Source: an uncultured archaeon
Lineage (GTDB): Archaea > Asgardarchaeota > Thorarchaeia > Thorarchaeales > Thorarchaeaceae
Reading direction: 5' to 3'
Length of the DNA: 32,000 nt
Assembly (NCBI GenBank): GCA_964648855.1
Contig: CAZYLT010000004.1
Location: forward strand, 49,532-81,531
Shown: one piece after another, positions 1-25,452 of the stretch
Position numbering within the stretch: position 1 is the first letter of the stretch
How the letters are laid out: every line of letters starts with the position of its first letter
Program-made: the position numbers and the translations under genes
Notes under the pieces: generated by a model
The model's database searches: none
Seen by the model: the letters and a program-made list of their open reading frames with translations, nothing else
Told to the model about the DNA's origin: nothing

Positions 1-38
1 CCGGGGTTATCTTCCAACAAATCCTTCGGTTTTGTCAT
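1..38 (-). CDS. 5' end of a gene running off the left edge (MTKPKDLLEDNP...), product unknown; position next to the ORBs would suit an Orc1/Cdc6 or other replication gene
   Basis: ATG at 38 preceded by GGTGAATTAGGTT (RBS-like GGTGA); frame open to the window edge. Only 12 codons visible. Confidence 0.5.
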   Translation of the reverse strand, partial: MTKPKDLLEDNP

Positions 39-161
39 AACCTAATTCACCACAGGCACATCATACCAACAATTTCAGCGACACTCATATTGTGTATCAG
101 TGTTGTGGTACTGGAATACTACTTAGAACACGTGTTCCAGTTAATATTCGCTGGCTAATAT

Positions 162-183
162 ACCCCTTCGTTTCCACTGGAAG
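162..183 (-). promoter_or_regulatory. Origin recognition box (ORB)
   Basis: Reverse complement reads CTTCCAGTGGAAACGAAGGGGT: inverted-repeat core plus G-string. Confidence 0.85.
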
Positions 184-304
184 TATAGAAATGGGGTACG
201 ATCAAGGCGCCCGTTGTATGATATATATAGAAATGGAGATAATATCGGGATGCATATACTACTATTTATACTTTACTAATTAGCTTCTTTGTAATTTATA
301 CCTG

Positions 305-326
305 TCTGGAGTGGAAACAATGGGGT
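305..326 (+). promoter_or_regulatory. ORB (degenerate left half)
   Basis: TCTGGAGTGGAAACAATGGGGT: AGTGGAAAC core plus G-string. Confidence 0.7.
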
Positions 327-409
327 GTACGAAGACTTAGAACACGTGGTCTAAATGTATTCCAAAAACGCCCGGTGCAAGCAAAATGTATTATCTGTAT
401 TACAGTGTC

Positions 410-703
410 TTACAAGTACACTTCTGATTCAACTTTGAAAATTTTGATTTTCAATATGTCACGGTAATACAGGAACAGCTCGTCGAACTGATCTTTGCAA
501 CCATCGGGAACCAAAATCGCAGAGTCTGTAACCGACTCAGCTCCCATACACTCCTCAATAAGTCCGACCTTTCTCTTCGTCTTGGTGCCCGACTTAGTCT
601 TCCATGAATAGGTGAATCCGTAGAGCTCTTTTGTGAAAGACACTCTCCTGGCGTTACTCTCCCTAGCCGCAACACAATCATAGATGTACAAGAACGCCAA
701 CAA
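410..703 (-). CDS. Small hypothetical protein, predicted Cas2/VapD-like ferredoxin fold
   Basis: TTG start with GGTGA RBS just upstream. N-terminal strand FLYIYD, helix NARRVSFTKELYG, then SAILVP and KIKIFKV strands. Confidence 0.6.
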   Translation of the reverse strand: MLAFLYIYDCVAARESNARRVSFTKELYGFTYSWKTKSGTKTKRKVGLIEECMGAESVTDSAILVPDGCKDQFDELFLYYRDILKIKIFKVESEVYL

Positions 704-839
704 CTGTCACCGAAAAACTAGAACACATGTTCTCAATTTCTTAGTTTGTAATATATCTCCTCGATGGAAACCTTAAAGGACAAGTAGCATCGCTCACCCG
801 CTCAGCCGAAGGTGAAACTTCAGCTCGGGAGGTCTACTT

Positions 840-2144
840 GTGAATAAGATTGGGATCAGAAGAGAGGAAAAAGCATTCGAGGCCCGGGCACCAATTATTC
901 CTGCCCATGTAAAGGAGCTGAGCCGAGGCCATGGGATAGAGTTCATAGTTGAACCGAGCGATTTGAGGGTGTTCGACGAAAAACTCTACCTAGAAGCTGG
1001 CGCCGAAACGGGATTACTGGACGGGGAAGAGCCAAAGGTAATAATTGGCATCAAAGAGATGCCAGAGGATTTCTTCCAATCTGGTAAGGTATATCTCTTC
1101 TTCAGTCACACGATAAAAGGTCAGAGGCACAATATGCCCATGCTTGCACGCATTCTTGATGAAGGTGCAACTCTTCTTGATTATGAACTCATAGTAGACG
1201 ATGAAGGTAGACGATTGGTATACTTTGGAAATTGGGCTGGGATGGCTGGAATCTCCGACACATTCAGGGTCCTTGGTGAGCGACTCGAACTAGAAAACAT
1301 TAGACCCAATCCATTTCACGGAATGAAACCCACCTTACAATCAAAAGGGCTCTCAGGCATAGAAAGAGAGTTCGGAACCTTAGCAAAAAGAATCCAGGAA
1401 GACGGTCTTCCCAAAGAGCTTACTCCTTTTGTTGTGGGTTTTGCAGGCTATGGCAACGTGTCCAGAGGAGCACAGAGAATGTTCGATATCTTGCCCCATG
1501 AAGTGATAGCGCCCGACGATTTGCCATCTCTACCAGCAAAAACGGATGTATTGTACAAATGCGTCTTCAAGGAGAAAGATATGGTGGCTCCTAATGATGA
1601 CAATGTGGAGTTCGAACTACAAGATTACTACACTCACGGGCTTGAGAAATATCACGGGATATTCCACGAACATGCAAAATACCTTACCGTGTTGATGAAT
1701 TGCATATACTGGTCTCCCAAGTACCCTCGCTTGTTAACCAAAGATTTCATTGAGAGTCAATGGTCGAAGACAAAGAACAAGCTCATCGTAGTAGGCGACA
1801 TCTCATGCGACATTGAAGGTGCGATTGAATTTACCGTTAAATGCACTAAGCCGGATAAGCCTGCCTTCACATACAATACAACAGCGAAAACAGCAGACTC
1901 AGGTGTCACAACTAATGGGCCTGTGATTATGGCGGTAGACAATCTCCCATGTGAATTGCCAATAGAGTCGTCAACCTCTTTCAGTGAAACCCTATTGGAT
2001 TTTGCACCTCCACTAGCAAAAACAGATTTCACTGTCGATTTCAACAAGCTTGATCTCTGCCGAGAGCTAAAAGACGCAATAATTGTCTATCAAGGGTCTC
2101 TCACTAAACCATACAAGTATCTAAACAAATATCTCAACAGGTGA
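840..2144 (+). CDS. Lysine-ketoglutarate reductase / saccharopine dehydrogenase (lysine-forming), AASS N-terminal-like
   Basis: IRRE..E.RAP, GIKE, FFSHTIKGQ, LLDYE, FGNWAGMAG, GYGNVSRGA, NCIYW, DISCD..GAIEF and VDNLP.ELP motifs of the LKR/AlaDh-PNT family; GGGAGGT RBS. Confidence 0.92.
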   Translation: MNKIGIRREEKAFEARAPIIPAHVKELSRGHGIEFIVEPSDLRVFDEKLYLEAGAETGLLDGEEPKVIIGIKEMPEDFFQSGKVYLFFSHTIKGQRHNMPMLARILDEGATLLDYELIVDDEGRRLVYFGNWAGMAGISDTFRVLGERLELENIRPNPFHGMKPTLQSKGLSGIEREFGTLAKRIQEDGLPKELTPFVVGFAGYGNVSRGAQRMFDILPHEVIAPDDLPSLPAKTDVLYKCVFKEKDMVAPNDDNVEFELQDYYTHGLEKYHGIFHEHAKYLTVLMNCIYWSPKYPRLLTKDFIESQWSKTKNKLIVVGDISCDIEGAIEFTVKCTKPDKPAFTYNTTAKTADSGVTTNGPVIMAVDNLPCELPIESSTSFSETLLDFAPPLAKTDFTVDFNKLDLCRELKDAIIVYQGSLTKPYKYLNKYLNR

Positions 2145-2151
2145 ATAAACC

Positions 2152-3465
2152 ATGAAGACTGTTCTATGTCTAGGAGCGGGTCTCGTCGCCCGACCCTATG
2201 TTCAATATCTATGTAAAAGAGGATTTCATGTTATCGTTGCTAGCCGAACAAAGGAAAAGGCCGAGAAATTGATCCAAGGCTGCAAGAGCGCAGAAGCTGT
2301 GCAATTCAACATCAAAGATGATGATGAGCTCCTTCAAGAACTAGTAAACAAATCTGACCTGGTATGCTCCCTTCTTCCATATACTTACCACGTTAAGGCA
2401 GCAGAAGTAGCAATTGAGAATAACAAGCACTTCTGTACCACTTCTTACATTTCAAACGAGATGCACGAGCTGGACAAACCTGCAAATGAATCCAATGTTA
2501 TTCTTCTCAATGAGTGTGGTGTAGATCCTGGAATTGACCACATGAGTGCGCAAAAAATCATTGATGAAATTCATGATCAGGGTGGCAAGATAATCAGTTT
2601 CACTTCTTTCACTGGCGGCTTGCCTGCTCCAGAAGCAAATGATAATCCATTTGGTTACAAGCTATCATGGAGTCCTCGCGGTGTCCTGCTTGCAGGACGA
2701 AATGATGCTCAATTCTTGCAGGATGGCGAAGAGGTAACCATTCCCGGTTCAGAGTTGTTCAACAATTGCAACATTATGGAAATCCCCGGAATGGGTGAAT
2801 TCGAAGGATATCCCAATCGAGATAGCCTCTCTTACATTGATATCTATGATATCAATGAGGTCCAAACAATGTTGAGGGGCACATTGAGATATCCTGGCTG
2901 GTGTGATACCATCCAAGCAATTGCTGATTTGGGTCTTCTAGACCTGACGGAACGAAAGCTATCTGGTATAACATACAAAGAGATGATTCAACAAATCGTA
3001 TCCGAAGACAGCAATCCAAGAGAAGCCGTTGCCAAGGAGCTGAGCTTAGAATCTTCTGATCCGATTATCGAACGACTCGATTGGCTAGGATTATTTTCCG
3101 AAGATACAATGCCTGATGACAGGAATACATACCTTGATGCTCTATGTAATCTGTTCGAAGAGAAACTGCAGTATGCTACTGGCGAACGAGATATGATTGT
3201 GATGCATCATGAATTCGTTGCCAAATACCCAGAAAAGAGAGAGAAGGTAACATCGACCTTGATTGATTATGGTATCCCCAACGATGACACCTCTATGTCT
3301 AGAACTGTGGCATTACCTGTCGCTATTGCATCTAGACTAATTCTACAAGACAAAATTGACGCTAGGGGAGTACATCGGCCTATTCTTCCTGAGATCTATG
3401 AGCCTATTTTGTCTGAGCTAAAGGAACTCGGGATAGAGCTCAAAGAGAGAACAACAAAACTGTAG
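2152..3465 (+). CDS. Saccharopine dehydrogenase (glutamate-forming), Lys9 / AASS C-terminal-like
   Basis: Rossmann LGAGLV, SLLPYTYH, TTSY, NECGVDPGIDHM, GGLPAPE..DNPFGYK.SWSP.GVL, RGTLRYPG, M.RTVALP. Confidence 0.95.
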   Translation: MKTVLCLGAGLVARPYVQYLCKRGFHVIVASRTKEKAEKLIQGCKSAEAVQFNIKDDDELLQELVNKSDLVCSLLPYTYHVKAAEVAIENNKHFCTTSYISNEMHELDKPANESNVILLNECGVDPGIDHMSAQKIIDEIHDQGGKIISFTSFTGGLPAPEANDNPFGYKLSWSPRGVLLAGRNDAQFLQDGEEVTIPGSELFNNCNIMEIPGMGEFEGYPNRDSLSYIDIYDINEVQTMLRGTLRYPGWCDTIQAIADLGLLDLTERKLSGITYKEMIQQIVSEDSNPREAVAKELSLESSDPIIERLDWLGLFSEDTMPDDRNTYLDALCNLFEEKLQYATGERDMIVMHHEFVAKYPEKREKVTSTLIDYGIPNDDTSMSRTVALPVAIASRLILQDKIDARGVHRPILPEIYEPILSELKELGIELKERTTKL

Positions 3466-3505
3466 TAGATAGAACTTCAAGCTGAGCAGAGGACTGAAGC
3501 TGAAT

Positions 3506-4132
3506 CTATTTGCCGACTTGCAAGTGAATCAGTGAAAGAATCTCTTCAGACCTTTCCACTTCCTTCTGTGTTTCTTTTAATTCAGTCTTTAGTCGGTATG
3601 TATAGCCCGAGCGATTTCCATACCTCTCTACATGCCCCTCTCCCTCATCCCACATTCTTGCAAGATAAGTAGACGCAGTGCTCTTTGGAAGCGACTCATT
3701 GAAGGTACTCTCATAGATTTCAGCTACATCAAGAGAAGAGAATTTGCCATGTTTGAATGATGCGTATATTACAACCTGCATCTTCTCGTAATTACTCATG
3801 GCTTCAAAGTCCAATTCAGGCGAACCTGTCGATGGTGCCTCCATTTTGGTTTCAGGAAAGCTATATCCTGTGCTAGTTTCAAGAAATACCCTGAACTTCT
3901 GGATCATCTCATCAATGTCGCCCTTAACTTGAAAGCTGGATTCTTCTCCCGTGGTTTCTGAAGATATTACTATCTTGAAATCAAAAGGAGATTCTGTGAG
4001 TGATACTATCTTTTTGAAACGTTTTAGAGCCTCATCCGGGGAAACGTATTTGCACCGGAAGATTTCCTTCATTCCTGGTCCGGAGCTATAGGTGAACTCG
4101 TAGATGTAATTTGTCCGAATTTCTTCACTCAC
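3506..4132 (-). CDS. Winged-helix DNA-binding protein with duplicated N-terminal beta-beta-alpha modules
   Basis: GTG start with GGTGA RBS. C-terminal FSSLDVAEIYE..F...LPKSTASTYLARM.......VER.G....YTYRL is a typical wHTH. Confidence 0.75.
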   Translation of the reverse strand: MSEEIRTNYIYEFTYSSGPGMKEIFRCKYVSPDEALKRFKKIVSLTESPFDFKIVISSETTGEESSFQVKGDIDEMIQKFRVFLETSTGYSFPETKMEAPSTGSPELDFEAMSNYEKMQVVIYASFKHGKFSSLDVAEIYESTFNESLPKSTASTYLARMWDEGEGHVERYGNRSGYTYRLKTELKETQKEVERSEEILSLIHLQVGK

Positions 4133-4643
4133 TTTGATTCACCATAATCAGTACTGAAACCCAAGGGTACCGTACACCTGATTCACATGTGGTAACGTTG
4201 CAATCCAAATAAGTGTGAGTATGTGAATCGACTATACACACATAACGTCAAGATATTACCCAACATAGCTTGATTAGCTTCTAAACCTTCAATTAGAGTA
4301 TTCTAAGACATTATAGTAACCATTTCAATATAAAAAACCCTCATAACTCTTATTTTACACCTTTAGGTGATTTCTCCAACTTAACTACTATTCACATGCT
4401 TATCATGCTTGTGAACATGCTATAGTATTATTCATATCTCTAATTACTCATCTCCAGTGGAAACGAAGGGGTGTCTTTATTCACATGTATGAACGGGGTT
4501 ATGAGGGCTTTTCTAATGAAAATAAGACAAATGACATTCTTTTGCAGTAATTCATTCACAAAAATGGCGCCATTCACAGATAATGGTTGTGAAAATGTGT
4601 TAATGAGGTGAATAATTGAAAGGAAGACTAGTGAAAGAGGATT
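4133..4643. other. Putative origin-like region B: ORB, AT-rich DNA, TTCACA repeats and a long imperfect inverted repeat
   Basis: ORB 4453-4472; ATTCACA or its inverse at 4181, 4222, 4390, 4479, 4554, 4572; inverted repeat about 4323-4349 / 4496-4521. Confidence 0.65.
4453..4472 (+). promoter_or_regulatory. ORB identical (inverted) to 162-181
   Basis: TCCAGTGGAAACGAAGGGGT, a 20/20 match to the reverse complement of 162-181. Confidence 0.85.
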
Positions 4644-5648
4644 CTACGCTAGAATTGGTAGGAAAGAGTTCGAAGATTGTCCTCCCAGGACAATCTGCTT
4701 ATGAAATCCAGAATGCCGACTTATCACCGATTCCAGCTTACCAGACACCCTCACACTCGTTCCTTCACGCGCACATTCTGTAAATCTACTCTGATGCCCC
4801 ACAATTTTGGTCAAGAATGGATCGTTATCACACTCAACAGAATATTCACAGGGCGTAAAGATAGCCTTGTAATCATCAATAATTCTGCACGTTCTATTTA
4901 CTAGCCCTGACGATTTTGTGATATAATCTCCGTATTGAAAGCTAGCATCTGATTCATTTGGAACTAGACGGATGAAAAAATCTCTGGAGCGAAAATGTCC
5001 TTGCAAGACTTTTTGTTCTTCAAGCATTTCGAGCACTGCCGCGTTCTCCCTGTTTCCCCATCGCAATTGGGTGTGCTCAGTCAATTCTCTTCCCGAATAT
5101 CTTTCTAATTCGTCATCATCTTGAGAAAAAATCTCTCCCATCTCTGCATACAACTTCTTCCCTATATCGTATCCGTAGACAATAAGATCAATATCGGAAG
5201 AAGAATGGGCCAAACCTGCCAAGTTTGATCCTATAATCCCCATGTTGTCAAGGCTTACTCCGGTTTTTGTAGATAACCTAGTCGCCAAATCAATTATGTC
5301 TCGCTCGAGATTTGATGCCGCACTACATTCAAGTAATTCTCTCAAATGTTCGATTGGATTTAGAACCCGCACGATATCATTTTTTGGAACAATCTGAACA
5401 ACTCGATCTTTGGTGGTATCAAAATGCAGATAGGATGCAGTCTTCGTCTGAGCATACCTCATTTTTTCGGGGAGTGTTGGTATTTTTCTGTAAGTACATC
5501 CATCTTTTGACTCTCTATCTCCATCTTCACTTCTCACATATCTCGCATAAGCAATGTATCCATCAGAAGGATGCACTAGACCTCTTACCTCAAATATATC
5601 TCCATTATTGACCTCGAGAAAGTCGCCTTCAATCACATTACCCTGCAT
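4644..5648 (-). CDS. Predicted archaeal nucleotidyltransferase (COG1665-like, Pol-beta superfamily)
   Basis: EGDF..., F.V.G..HP...IAY.RYV, and the GS-DxD signature GIIGS.LAG.....SDIDLIVYG. Confidence 0.8.
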   Translation of the reverse strand: MQGNVIEGDFLEVNNGDIFEVRGLVHPSDGYIAYARYVRSEDGDRESKDGCTYRKIPTLPEKMRYAQTKTASYLHFDTTKDRVVQIVPKNDIVRVLNPIEHLRELLECSAASNLERDIIDLATRLSTKTGVSLDNMGIIGSNLAGLAHSSSDIDLIVYGYDIGKKLYAEMGEIFSQDDDELERYSGRELTEHTQLRWGNRENAAVLEMLEEQKVLQGHFRSRDFFIRLVPNESDASFQYGDYITKSSGLVNRTCRIIDDYKAIFTPCEYSVECDNDPFLTKIVGHQSRFTECAREGTSVRVSGKLESVISRHSGFHKQIVLGGQSSNSFLPILA

Positions 5649-5707
5649 TCTTCTTTCAAACCAATCGAAATCATCAGAGTTAAGACCTACTGGTCCTGAA
5701 TAAGAGT

Positions 5708-6919
5708 ATGCCTGAAATAGAAATACGAGAAGACTTTCCCCTATTCGAAGCTAATCCAGCATTAGTATATCTTGACTCTTCAAGTACAACACTTGTTCCT
5801 GAAACAGTTATCTCTGCATCGTCAGAATTTCTGCGCAATATTACTGTGTCGTCCAGAAGAGGTGCATACCAACTTGCAGTTAAAGGTGGGCAGATAGTTG
5901 AGGATGCTAGGAAACGATTGGCCTCCATGCTTAGTACTAATGCCAATCAAATATCATTCCACGGAAGCCTACCATCTGCAATTACGTCGCTAGTCCTAGG
6001 CTATGATTGGAGCTCGGGAAAGAAAGACTCGATAATAATATCAGAGGCAGAACACAACTCAGTCATCATTCCTTTACGACGAGTAGCTGAAATTCTGAAT
6101 ATTGACGTGCATATCATCCCGACGAATGAGAATGGGGTTGTAGATATTCAGGAACTGGATAGAATCACCAACAATAGAACAGGAATTGTAGCCGTATCGG
6201 AATGGGTGCCTGGAACTGACAAACACAACCCGCTAGAAACTATATCTGAAATCGCACACGACTCGGGTGCTATTTTACTCACAGAAGCAAGCAGAGAAGT
6301 CGCATTTTCCGAAGACATATCCTTCCCCTCCTTTGCTGACGTCGCATTCTTTTCAAGCAATAGATGCCTGATGGCGCCACCGGGAACTACAATCCAATGG
6401 GCTTCAAGGGAAATAGGAAACAGAGTCAAGCCTGGAATTCTAGGAGCAAACTCGGTTTCCGTTGTTGAAGAATCCTCATTTGAAACAGCGCTTCCCCCTG
6501 ACAAATTTGAATCGGGCATTTTGCCAATATCAAGTATTGCAGCTATTGATGAGGCAATCAATTATACCCGAGGCCTTCGGAGCAAAGGCCTTCTAAAGCA
6601 CATGAGAACTCTATCCAAGCACCTAGTAGAGTCTCTAAATGGCATCCCATCATTAACTCTCTACGGGAATCCAACTAGTGAGAATGTCTCAGTCATTTTC
6701 AACATTGGCAAGGATGCCGGTGTCAGTTGCCATGACATTGCACTATTCCTGAATCAAAGCAACATAGCCGTGAGATCGGGCCTATTATGCTCATCACTCT
6801 TGATGAAGAAGTATTCCGATGCTGGTGTGATTCAAGTTTCTCTTCATGGTTATAATACCATGTCCGATATTGATAAGCTCTCAAAACAGCTGAACCTAAT
6901 TGCTTCTCAACTCATATAG
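5708..6919 (+). CDS. SufS/cysteine desulfurase-like class V aminotransferase-fold protein, degenerate PLP site
   Basis: IREDFP, VYLDSSSTT, EHNS, P.KFESG, IAVRSGLLC, VSLHGYNT..DID. The canonical SGHK motif reads SSNR. Confidence 0.85.
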   Translation: MPEIEIREDFPLFEANPALVYLDSSSTTLVPETVISASSEFLRNITVSSRRGAYQLAVKGGQIVEDARKRLASMLSTNANQISFHGSLPSAITSLVLGYDWSSGKKDSIIISEAEHNSVIIPLRRVAEILNIDVHIIPTNENGVVDIQELDRITNNRTGIVAVSEWVPGTDKHNPLETISEIAHDSGAILLTEASREVAFSEDISFPSFADVAFFSSNRCLMAPPGTTIQWASREIGNRVKPGILGANSVSVVEESSFETALPPDKFESGILPISSIAAIDEAINYTRGLRSKGLLKHMRTLSKHLVESLNGIPSLTLYGNPTSENVSVIFNIGKDAGVSCHDIALFLNQSNIAVRSGLLCSSLLMKKYSDAGVIQVSLHGYNTMSDIDKLSKQLNLIASQLI

Positions 6920-23938: not shown

Positions 23939-24039
23939 GCGGCCGTGGTCTAGTTTGGTTAGGACGGAAGCTTCCCAAGCTTCCAACCCGAGTCAATTCA
24001 TCACAAATTGCGGGACTTCAAATCCCGGCGGCCGCACCA
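23939..24039 (+). tRNA. tRNA-Gly(CCC) with a 24-nt intron at 53/54 (intron 23993-24016), encoded CCA
   Basis: Acceptor GCGGCCG/CGGCCGC, anticodon arm GAAGC-TTCCCAA-GCTTC. Splice motif CCCG AG|T CAATT..AATTG CGGG AC|T. Confidence 0.93.
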
Positions 24040-24088
24040 CATTATCTTCATACAAGGAAACTTAAGGGCTATAGCTGCATATTTTCAC

Positions 24089-24160: not shown

Positions 24161-24258
24161 ACCAATACTTTCACCCACCTCTACCACTAATGTTCAATTA
24201 ACCGAACAAACAAGCAAGCCTTTTTATGTTAATGCACATCACAATCTCGTGGTTTCTG

Positions 24259-25452
24259 ATGCCGCGTGACTATGTTGAAGACGAACTCGGGAAGACTAGC
24301 GTATTCAAATCCGAGAAATATCTGTCAATAGATTATGTACCCGAGAATCTACCTCATAGAGAAACAGAATTGAGAACACTGGCTCAAAGTTTCAAAACAA
24401 TGATTGTTTCTCCTGGACAAACAAGTCAGAAATTCATCATCCAAGGGCCCGTTGGGACAGGAAAGACTGCAGTCACAAAGAGATTTTCTGAGCAATTAGT
24501 TCAAGCTGCAGCAAGGAGAAAAATAAGACTACGTAAAATACACATCAATTGTAGAGTCAATAAGAGTGAGTATCTTGTATATCTTAAAATTCTTCGGTCA
24601 TTCAAACCCAATTTTCCCCGTCGAGGGCATTCTCCTGAAGAAGTTCTTCAAATGATTATAGAAGTACTTGATGCTGAGGATCGATATCTTTTACTGATTC
24701 TGGACGAACTTGATTACTTCATTAAGCAAAAGGGCGTAGACATAATATACAATCTGACTCGCTTAATGGATGATCGATTAAATGCACCCCAACGACTCTC
24801 GATTATTGGTATCGGTCGAAAAATTCCCTTAGACGATAGTGTTTTTGATTCCAGTACATTGAGTACATTGCAACGCAATGTGCTATATTTTGAGAAATAC
24901 ACCTCACGCGCACTGAGGGATATTCTCTCTGAGAGAATCAAGATGGCTTTTGAACCTAGAGCAATTATGGAGGAAACGATTAATGTTATTTGTGACATTG
25001 CCTCAAACAGGGGGGATGCACGGTATGCTATCGAGCTCCTTTGGCGCGGTGGGAAACAAGCTGACGCAGTCGGTTCTGATGTCATAATCCCCGATTATGT
25101 TCGAAAGGCTAAAGCTGACACTCACCCAGAACTACGAGAAGAGGTTTTCGAAACACTTCCTTTACATAATAAATTGTTACTATTGGCTGCCGCACGCCAG
25201 TTGAAAGAGGCAAGAAGTGCATATGTGACGATTGGGGAGGTTGAGGAGATGTATCAATCAGTTTGCGAAGAGTTTGGAAAACAATCTAGAGCACATACAC
25301 AGATTTGGGAATGGGTTCAAGACTTGACTGCTCATGGCGTAATAGACGCCAGGAAATCAGGAGTAGGTCAAAGGGGTCAGACAACTCTTATCGGGTTATC
25401 AGACGTTCCTGCGGATTTACTTGAACAATTCTTGGTCAGTCTTTTGGAGTAG
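24259..25452 (+). CDS. cdc6: Orc1/Cdc6 replication initiator family protein; likely start ATG at 24259
   Basis: VF....L..DYVP..LPHRE, GPVGTGKT, HINC, LILDELD, GDARYAIELL, C-terminal wHTH with G.RGQTT.I. Confidence 0.96.
   Translation: MPRDYVEDELGKTSVFKSEKYLSIDYVPENLPHRETELRTLAQSFKTMIVSPGQTSQKFIIQGPVGTGKTAVTKRFSEQLVQAAARRKIRLRKIHINCRVNKSEYLVYLKILRSFKPNFPRRGHSPEEVLQMIIEVLDAEDRYLLLILDELDYFIKQKGVDIIYNLTRLMDDRLNAPQRLSIIGIGRKIPLDDSVFDSSTLSTLQRNVLYFEKYTSRALRDILSERIKMAFEPRAIMEETINVICDIASNRGDARYAIELLWRGGKQADAVGSDVIIPDYVRKAKADTHPELREEVFETLPLHNKLLLLAAARQLKEARSAYVTIGEVEEMYQSVCEEFGKQSRAHTQIWEWVQDLTAHGVIDARKSGVGQRGQTTLIGLSDVPADLLEQFLVSLLE

Follow-up and report, generated by a model that had tools for sequence, protein, structure and literature searches.

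The stretch of DNA analyzed here, referred to as the window, comprises 32,000 nucleotides from an uncultured Asgard archaeon of the family Thorarchaeaceae and corresponds to positions 49532-81531 of contig C4 in an assembly of 3.11 Mb and 62 contigs (genome G000). Close to its left end two AT-rich intergenic regions, region A (approximately 121-354) and region B (4133-4643), carry copies of a putative origin recognition box (ORB), the element bound by the archaeal initiator Orc1/Cdc6. In the original prediction it was reported that the 20-mer TCCAGTGGAAACGAAGGGGT occurs exactly at 4453-4472 on the plus strand and in inverted orientation at 162-181, approximately 4.3 kb apart, and both copies are present at these positions. 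Allowing up to three mismatches adds no further site in the window, and shuffled sequences lead to an expectation of 0.01 matches. A scan of the assembly with up to five mismatches revealed a third ORB, TGGAGTGGAAACAATGGGGT, at 307-326 on the plus strand with four mismatches, which had been overlooked and which makes region A an inverted ORB pair. No other exact or near-exact ORB was found in the 62 contigs at this threshold; beyond the locus only two isolated sites lie within four mismatches and these were judged to be chance matches. Full ORBs are not scattered over the genome, and the two exact copies and the four-mismatch copy all cluster at this one locus. The 20-mer holds the dyad core TCCAGTGGAAA with the invariant TTCC and GAA motifs, followed by GGGG. 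Cdc6 binds oligonucleotides representing ORB1 and ORB2 of Pyrococcus furiosus, in which this core is found on the opposite strand as CCCCC...TTTCATTTCCACTGGA, and the ORB core TTTCCACTGGA together with a G/C string is present in the Cdc6-binding ORB1/ORB2 oligonucleotides of Pyrococcus (PMC1904270). The assignment to the ORB consensus made in the original prediction agrees with this match, and the 20-mer is an archaeal ORB and as such a predicted Orc1/Cdc6 site.

Region A is built up in the order palindrome box, ORB1 (minus strand), an AT-rich stretch of 125 bp, ORB2 (plus strand) and palindrome box. The stretch between the inverted ORBs has a GC content of 0.29 at 201-300 and is a candidate DNA unwinding element (DUE), in the center of which the intergenic alignment of family relatives shows the conserved element AAATGGAGAT ... 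TATTTATACTTT. With two inverted ORBs placed around an AT-rich core, region A is by its anatomy a classical archaeal origin core. In three of eleven relatives (L029, L032, L034) this AT-rich core has the opposite orientation relative to the flanking genes, and recombination between the inverted ORBs would explain these flips. The additional repeats described in the original prediction are real: boxes of the GAACACGTGTTC type are found at three sites in and next to region A, i.e., the exact left copy, whose position is kept in 12 of 12 aligned genomes, the right copy GAACACGTGGTC and a third copy, GAACACATGTTC, in the divergent p97/LKR promoter region. The right box lies beyond the 3' end of p97 and is thus not in a promoter position. 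The full palindrome TTAGAACACGTGTTCTAA of 18 bp occurs at approximately ten other, mostly intergenic, sites of the genome (among them C1:132239, C2:100351, C2:263579, C6:5219, C19:16503, C11:5166 and C11:73874) and is hence not origin-specific. Genes near these sites include SHMT, an actin homologue, PolX and a Hjc-like nuclease. It was considered if the box is part of a repeated gene cassette, but its neighbors are unrelated (six were compared directly and the others match unrelated Pfam families). TTAGAACACGTGTTCTAA looks like the operator of a regulator, which also brackets the origin core. On contig C11 (5166-5321) the box GAACACGTGGTC lies approximately 125 bp from the four-mismatch ORB-like site TCCATCGGAAGCGATGGGGT, with AT-rich DNA in between. 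A further palindrome, TGTAWTACA, has 14 exact copies in the genome, nine of which are located within 21 kb to the left of the origin (C4:28880-49927), the last one at window position 396. GTATTACA-type copies are also found near region A in relatives, and this cluster may constitute an origin-adjacent protein-binding field.

Region B contains the single ORB3, approximately ten TTCACA/TGTGAA boxes at fixed positions and a GGCGCC motif, and it is situated upstream of p208. The AT-rich setting described for both regions was recovered here as well (GC content 0.29-0.30 at 4251-4450), as were the ATTCACA-type repeats: eight ATTCAC/GTGAAT hexamers were counted per 500 bp compared to a genome mean of 0.31, which makes region B the densest site of the genome except for a CRISPR array. 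This array is located at a contig end (C9:1-800) and has a 37-nt repeat, GTTTCAATTCCCTTTCTTCGGGATTCACTTCTGCAAT, that happens to contain the hexamer. The segment 4181-4228 with the TGTGA boxes and the block CAAATAAGTGTGAGTATGTGAAT is, as judged from its position, probably the p208 promoter. The sequence GGCGCCATTCAC is invariant in 12 of 12 genomes and occurs a single time in G000. No inverted partner of ORB3 was found in region B within five mismatches. In both regions the intergenic alignments show discrete conserved blocks and not a coding-like conservation, and a search of positions 1-6000 against Rfam with E-values up to 1 detected no known RNA family in region A or B.

Between the two regions p97 (minus strand), the genes LKR and SDH of the saccharopine pathway (plus strand) and p208 (minus strand) are encoded. 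The original prediction of an uncharacterized small gene next to each region held, as p97 and p208 are both real and conserved genes. For p97 no sequence match was found in the PDB, Pfam or NCBIfam, including a profile search against PDB sequences; its homologues form 74 clusters, of which the named ones belong to Thorarchaeota/Promethearchaeota, and residues Y8-D9 are nearly invariant. The predicted structure is confident (pLDDT 92) and suggests a ferredoxin-like fold. In comparisons of this model with Foldseek and VIA-align, Cas2/VapD gave Z-scores of 6.6-7.8 with a root-mean-square deviation of 2.2-3.1 Å, which ties with S6, PII, NikR and designed ferredoxin folds. In the Cas2-type ferredoxin fold the N-terminal strand carries a conserved Asp. 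p97 homologues adjoin ORBs also in distant Asgard relatives. The protein p208 is approximately 70% identical across the Thorarchaeota family; it has no Pfam or NCBIfam family and gave nothing significant in a profile search against PDB sequences. In the predicted structure (pLDDT 76) an N-terminal domain of the order beta-beta-alpha-beta-beta-alpha is connected by a linker to a winged helix, which is followed by a C-terminal helix; the best fold matches of the winged helix are PadR-, MarR- and BlaI/MecI-type regulators. Full-length p208 is essentially Thorarchaeota-specific; in other lineages, proteins of approximately 130-220 residues match it mainly in the C-terminal part with the winged helix. 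LKR and SDH are encoded by two separate, neighboring genes, arranged in the domain order of the eukaryotic bifunctional AASS.

The gene to the left of position 38, the identification of which had been left to further analyses, is iorA, and orc1 is ruled out at this place. Directly left of window position 1 lies a scaffold gap of 100 N (L001:11901-12000) with identical 55 bp on either side. The start of iorA is duplicated by this repeat, which looks like an assembler overlap join at the edge of the origin region. To the right of region B a gene of 334 residues, p334 (minus strand), is followed by a class-V aminotransferase-like gene. p334 is not origin-linked in three distant relatives that carry it and it was not found in G020. 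An open reading frame of 55 residues (4616-4783, plus strand) was judged spurious because it overlaps the 334-residue gene on the opposite strand and has no family match; its sole tblastn match in the same-genus relative lies inside the overlap with this gene.

Two Orc1/Cdc6 genes, orc1_1 and orc1_2, are encoded in the genome, both on contig C4, and neither adjoins the ORBs: orc1_1 is approximately 20 kb and orc1_2 approximately 59 kb away. Adjacency of orc1/cdc6 is typical of archaeal origins, but not obligatory. It was originally noted that the cdc6 gene visible in the window is 20 kb away and has no ORB. This is correct, as orc1_1 has no ORB within five mismatches and no mini-ORB core nearby, but the origin-linked paralogue is orc1_2, which lies outside the window. 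The orthologue of the ORB-adjacent orc1 in other Asgard families is orc1_2 and not orc1_1. Where orc1_2 and an ORB share a contig, they are no more than 3.5 kb apart in 35 of 37 cases outside the family, but 54-152 kb apart in all six cases inside it. The gene dp1 accompanies orc1_2 in both G000 and G019. The orc1_1-type gene is found approximately 20 kb from the ORB locus in G009 and approximately 17 kb in G020. Three CCAGTGGA mini-ORB-like boxes without the G-string are located in a region of approximately 100 bp upstream of orc1_2 (L003:2698-2803); these may have been carried along with the gene from the ancestral origin region, or they may serve in its autoregulation. In G020 a third orc1 paralogue is encoded at approximately 502.5 kb, and upstream of orc1_1 in the window, at approximately 23940-24040, the sequence resembles a tRNA gene interrupted by an intron.

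Table 1. Features of the ORB locus and the Orc1/Cdc6 genes (window positions unless a contig is given).
Feature	Position	Strand	Remarks
iorA, then iorB	left of position 38		2-oxoacid:ferredoxin oxidoreductase (iorA: alpha subunit)
Left palindrome box GAACACGTGTTC	126-137		flanks ORB1; exact copy
ORB1, exact 20-mer	162-181	-	0-5 mismatches in family relatives
Candidate DUE	182-306		AT-rich; between the inverted ORBs
Central DUE element AAATGGAGAT ... TATTTATACTTT	~229-273		conserved in intergenic alignment
ORB2, degenerate, TGGAGTGGAAACAATGGGGT	307-326	+	4 mismatches; ORB at homologous position in every relative
Right palindrome box GAACACGTGGTC	340-351		flanks ORB2; 1 mismatch to GAACACGTGTTC
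p97, 97 residues	410-703	-	predicted ferredoxin-like fold; no assigned family
Third palindrome box GAACACATGTTC	721-732		divergent p97/LKR promoter region; 1 mismatch to GAACACGTGTTC
LKR	840-2144	+	Pfam AlaDh_PNT_N/C
SDH	2152-3465	+	Pfam Sacchrp_dh_NADP/C
p208, 208 residues	3506-4132	-	predicted N-terminal alpha/beta domain, winged helix, C-terminal helix
ATTCACA box and invariant block CAAATAAGTGTGAGTATGTGAAT	4181-4228		near p208 start; conserved in 12-genome alignment
AT-rich tract	4250-4450		dyad side of ORB3; GC 0.29-0.30; conserved blocks
Inverted pair ATTCAC-N13-TTGTGAAC	4390-4416		inside the AT-rich tract
ORB3, exact 20-mer and conserved G	4453-4473	+	0-2 mismatches in 12/12 family relatives
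Distal box array	4479-4613		ATTCACA (4479), TGTGAA (4588), GTGAAT (4607)
ATTCACAA-N3-TGGCGCCATTCACA	4554-4578		in the distal box array; TGGCGCCATTCACA invariant
orc1_1	24226-25452	+	Pfam and NCBIfam ORC1-type; ~20 kb from the ORBs
orc1_2	C4:112804-114078		outside the window; ~59 kb right of ORB3; adjoins dp1 (PolD small subunit)

The conservation of the locus was analyzed in 12 family relatives, comprising ten other genera as well as the same genus, and in 101 Asgard genomes sampled for the ORB and for p208. Each of the 12 family relatives has all three ORBs, with ORB3 being better conserved than ORB1 and ORB2 and lying 4.1-4.4 kb from the ORB pair. The order iorBA, box, ORB1, DUE, ORB2, box, p97, LKR, SDH, p208, region B/ORB3, p334, aminotransferase is shared by 11 of these 12 relatives, and LKR-SDH lies between p97 and p208 in all of them. 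The exception is G004 (C17:147000-162500; L031, L143), in which the block from LKR to the aminotransferase is inverted, so that region B lies approximately 3.1 kb from region A on its other side and in opposite relative orientation; the ORBs of region A are more diverged in this genome, while G087 of the same genus retains the usual order. Taken together, this inversion and the flips of the core described above argue against a rigid geometric coupling between regions A and B.

Across the Asgard archaea, the ORB 20-mer with two mismatches allowed was found in 67 of the 101 genomes, usually in 1-4 copies forming one cluster, compared to three hits in total for the reversed control. The typical layout in other families is ORB (minus strand), 150-210 bp, ORB (plus strand), one or two small genes, a third ORB and orc1, with the third ORB 0.5-1.5 kb further on. 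In distant relatives the order ORB (minus strand), approximately 200 bp, ORB (plus strand), p208-like gene, ORB (plus strand), orc1_2 is shared. The small genes are p208 homologues and often p97 homologues too, and the ORB modules lie directly beside the orc1_2-type gene and dp1. With a p208 family hidden Markov model, 73 of the 101 genomes were found to have the gene, almost each of them in one copy; among the 55 genomes with both features, 43 have the p208-like gene at most 700 bp from an ORB and 52 have it at most 6 kb away, and in the other three it is on a different contig. The TTCACA boxes, the GGCGCC motif and the palindrome GAACAYRTGTTC are also found beside ORBs in distant relatives, one of which has an ATTCACA-N5-GGCGCC-N-TTGTGAA motif between ORB3 and orc1. 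LKR-SDH was not found in the origin loci fetched from eight genomes of other families, and in other Asgard families it does not lie between the ORB pair and the third ORB. In genomes of family f12 (e.g., G059:C13:19487, G074:C57:15926, G080:C22:19817, G106:C20:1027) the origin cluster of three ORBs is accompanied by a fourth conserved ORB-like site, TCCAMTGGAAACGATGGGGT, which lies on another contig and could mark a second Orc1-bound locus.

The analysis of GC skew is supportive in one relative. In G020, a complete genome of 1.42 Mb with a homologous locus, the cumulative G-C curve rises to 620-640 kb and then falls, and the circularity-corrected maximum at 626 kb is approximately 3 kb away from the ORB pair at 622.65-622.88 kb. 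In G000 only a weak local maximum was observed, and contig C2 of G009 likewise shows a weak local maximum near the locus with the same polarity as contig C4 of G000.

These observations suggest that regions A and B are probably two modules of one ancient Asgard chromosomal origin locus. Region A would be the initiation core and region B a satellite platform for Orc1 and a winged-helix protein, a division of roles that we consider likely, though far from certain, on the basis of sequence. Such a locus would belong to an ordinary kind of origin, with a layout that is unusual and undescribed. Originally, the locus had been regarded either as a split or bipartite origin interrupted by the lysine genes or as twin origins. 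The split is supported by the compact modules of other families, in which the modules are 0.9-1.5 kb apart without LKR/SDH, whereas in this family LKR-SDH lies in between; the twin arrangement is less likely. The ancestral compact locus would have contained the ORB pair, p97 and/or p208, the third ORB, orc1_2 and dp1. In this Thorarchaeota family LKR-SDH may then have come to separate p97 from p208 and thereby extended the locus to 4.3 kb. The genes orc1_2 and dp1 may have been displaced, most simply by an inversion that spanned approximately 60 kb and had one of its breakpoints immediately to the right of region B. Such an inversion would account for the present orientation, in which orc1_2 is directed away from the origin and dp1 is the nearer of the two genes. 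Mechanistically, an Orc1, most likely the orc1_2 orthologue, would bind all three ORBs, and MCM loading and DNA opening would take place between ORB1 and ORB2. ORB3 and a TTCACA-binding protein, for which p208 is the best candidate, would form a satellite nucleoprotein platform that does not itself fire but modulates origin firing or initiator availability by looping to region A or by holding Orc1. The GAACACGTGTTC boxes would be operators of a separate dimeric regulator, which would also act at approximately ten promoters elsewhere.

Several points weigh against this reading. An AT-rich tract of 200 bp and an iteron-like array are present in region B itself, and an independent origin might have both. 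The raw skew of G020 has a second peak, similar in height, at approximately 1283 kb, where neither an ORB nor orc1 is nearby, and the skew of G000 is weak and local, the maximum of contig C4 lying at approximately 40 kb compared to the ORBs at 49.7-54.0 kb; other contigs of G000 show skew swings of similar size. The skew has the polarity of a maximum, while bacterial origins are found at a minimum, and by itself it marks a replication landmark but not specifically an origin. The direction of the rearrangements was tentatively deduced from one outgroup with the same order (G019) and from more distant families. Finally, p208 was assigned to the TTCACA boxes and orc1_2 to the ORBs through gene linkage only.

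Among the alternatives, it is rather unlikely that region B is purely transcriptional, with ORB3 as an Orc1 operator and the TTCACA boxes as auto-operators of p208, both being relics of a divergent p208/orc1_2 promoter. Region B was ancestrally situated between divergent p208-like and orc1_2 genes, the TGTGA block lies at the position expected for the p208 promoter, and the three CCAGTGGA boxes are located directly upstream of the present orc1_2 gene. Moreover, Orc1 paralogues can regulate transcription, as described for Orc1-2 of Saccharolobus (PMC9738581). However, ORB3 and the distal boxes remained invariant after the departure of orc1_2 (12 of 12 genomes), which a promoter function alone would hardly account for; this is the main argument against the alternative. 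One of these boxes, GGCGCCATTCAC, is found approximately 430 bp upstream of where p208 starts, and the gene that it faces is a convergent one, presenting its 3' end. In addition, ORB3 retains the full G-string form of the origin ORBs, and the module always accompanies the ORB pair.

Still less probable is that the locus represents twin origins, in which region B would be fired independently by Orc1 at ORB3 and by p208 acting as winged-helix initiator on TTCACA iterons, comparable to Sulfolobus oriC3/WhiP. The AT-rich tract that abuts the dyad side of ORB3, the dense iteron-like array of boxes at fixed positions and the winged-helix gene next door would fit such an origin, and in Sulfolobus the individual origins are specified by different initiators, of which WhiP is one (PMC12141716). 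Against this stands the single ORB of region B without an inverted partner, since loss of either inverted ORB abolishes origin activity in S. islandicus (PMC12141716). In other families the module lies so close to the ORB pair that it would be of little use as a second origin. A Cdt1-like architecture has winged helices in tandem, whereas p208 is predicted to have a single one, which resembles PadR/MarR/BlaI regulators, and no Cdt1/WhiP match was found in searches of Pfam and PDB sequences, which a distant kinship could escape. That the 20-mers are chance repeats or the ends of a mobile element that brought the lysine genes is highly improbable: although two exact inverted copies bracket a metabolic gene pair like the terminal inverted repeats of a transposon, shuffled sequences hardly ever yield a match, the sequence is that of an archaeal ORB, three ORBs exist in Asgard families without LKR-SDH at the locus, and no transposase or integrase gene lies between the copies.

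A more far-reaching and clearly tentative proposal concerns the p208 family. It might constitute an Asgard-wide, origin-resident initiation co-factor acting on the TTCACA array with Orc1 as partner in loading, licensing or titration, and it might in effect be a prokaryotic forerunner or analogue of eukaryotic accessory origin factors. If this is true, region B would be a second helicase-loading or origin-control site, and replication in Thorarchaeota would start from a multi-kilobase, multi-factor zone in which the linked initiator gene is no longer needed. Among known prokaryotes, the Asgard archaea are most closely related to eukaryotes. No paper describing Asgard replication origins or ORB origins was found in the searchable literature. 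The locus provides a candidate phylum-wide origin signature consisting of the 20-bp ORB, the inverted pair with a satellite, the winged-helix gene, the ferredoxin-fold gene and two further DNA motifs, which is usable for placing origins in Asgard genome bins. It names two uncharacterized proteins and two motifs as candidate accessory origin factors. It also suggests that all cis elements of an archaeal origin can be kept even though the linked initiator gene is lost and metabolic genes are gained.

By analogy, the closest precedent for a bipartite ORB arrangement is the oriC of Thermococcales. In these archaea cdc6 lies between oriC, which has an inverted ORB pair and mini-ORBs, and a conserved second ORB cluster located approximately 1.5 kb away in dp1 (PMC1904270). 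Binding of Cdc6 to both ORB clusters was shown in vivo as well as in vitro, and looping has been suggested (Matsunaga et al., 2007; PMC1904270). As in Pyrococcus abyssi and P. furiosus, the locus described here has inverted ORB1/ORB2 at an AT-rich oriC and a conserved satellite ORB at least 1 kb away, this second ORB apart from the core being represented by ORB3 in 12 of 12 family relatives and by the third ORB in other families. The ORBs share the core TTTCCACTGGA with a C/G string, and full ORBs are essentially unique to the locus in both systems. The linkage of orc1 and dp1 to the locus in Thermococcales is encountered in other Asgard families as well. In Thermococcales the satellite lies inside dp1 on the far side of cdc6, whereas here it is intergenic between p208 and the 334-residue gene, 4.3 kb away with four genes in between, and orc1 and dp1 are at least 54 kb off. 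The satellite ORB is here embedded in a non-ORB TTCACA array beside a dedicated winged-helix gene. The G-string follows four bases after the dyad compared to approximately ten in Thermococcales.

A second comparison can be drawn to oriC1 of Saccharolobus/Sulfolobus. In S. islandicus the activity of oriC1 requires both inverted ORBs; the accessory motif ucm and UBP, the protein that reads it, are essential as well (PMC12141716). The authors suggest that analogous proteins may act at the origins of other lineages (Dhanaraju et al., 2025; PMC12141716). Both loci have three ORBs, two of them inverted around a DUE, and a conserved non-ORB element in or beside the origin, which in oriC1 is read by an accessory protein and here presumably so; the DUE core described here carries a conserved element as well. 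In contrast, oriC1 is compact with a functional core of approximately 130 bp and adjoins orc1-1, and hundreds of sites exist for UBP, an abundant nucleoid protein, whereas the TTCACA array is confined to the locus and p208 is a single-copy gene with a predicted winged helix. With Sulfolobus oriC3, beside which the Cdt1-like winged-helix initiator WhiP is encoded, the locus shares a winged-helix gene beside an origin-like region with non-ORB repeats; here, however, p208 is predicted to have one PadR/MarR-like winged helix and an unrelated N-terminal domain, and region B still carries a full ORB. Compared to these known origins, the Thorarchaeota locus differs in four respects, i.e., the spacing of 4.3 kb with metabolic genes in between, the absence of a linked initiator gene, the box array at the satellite and the two small genes that travel with the ORBs.

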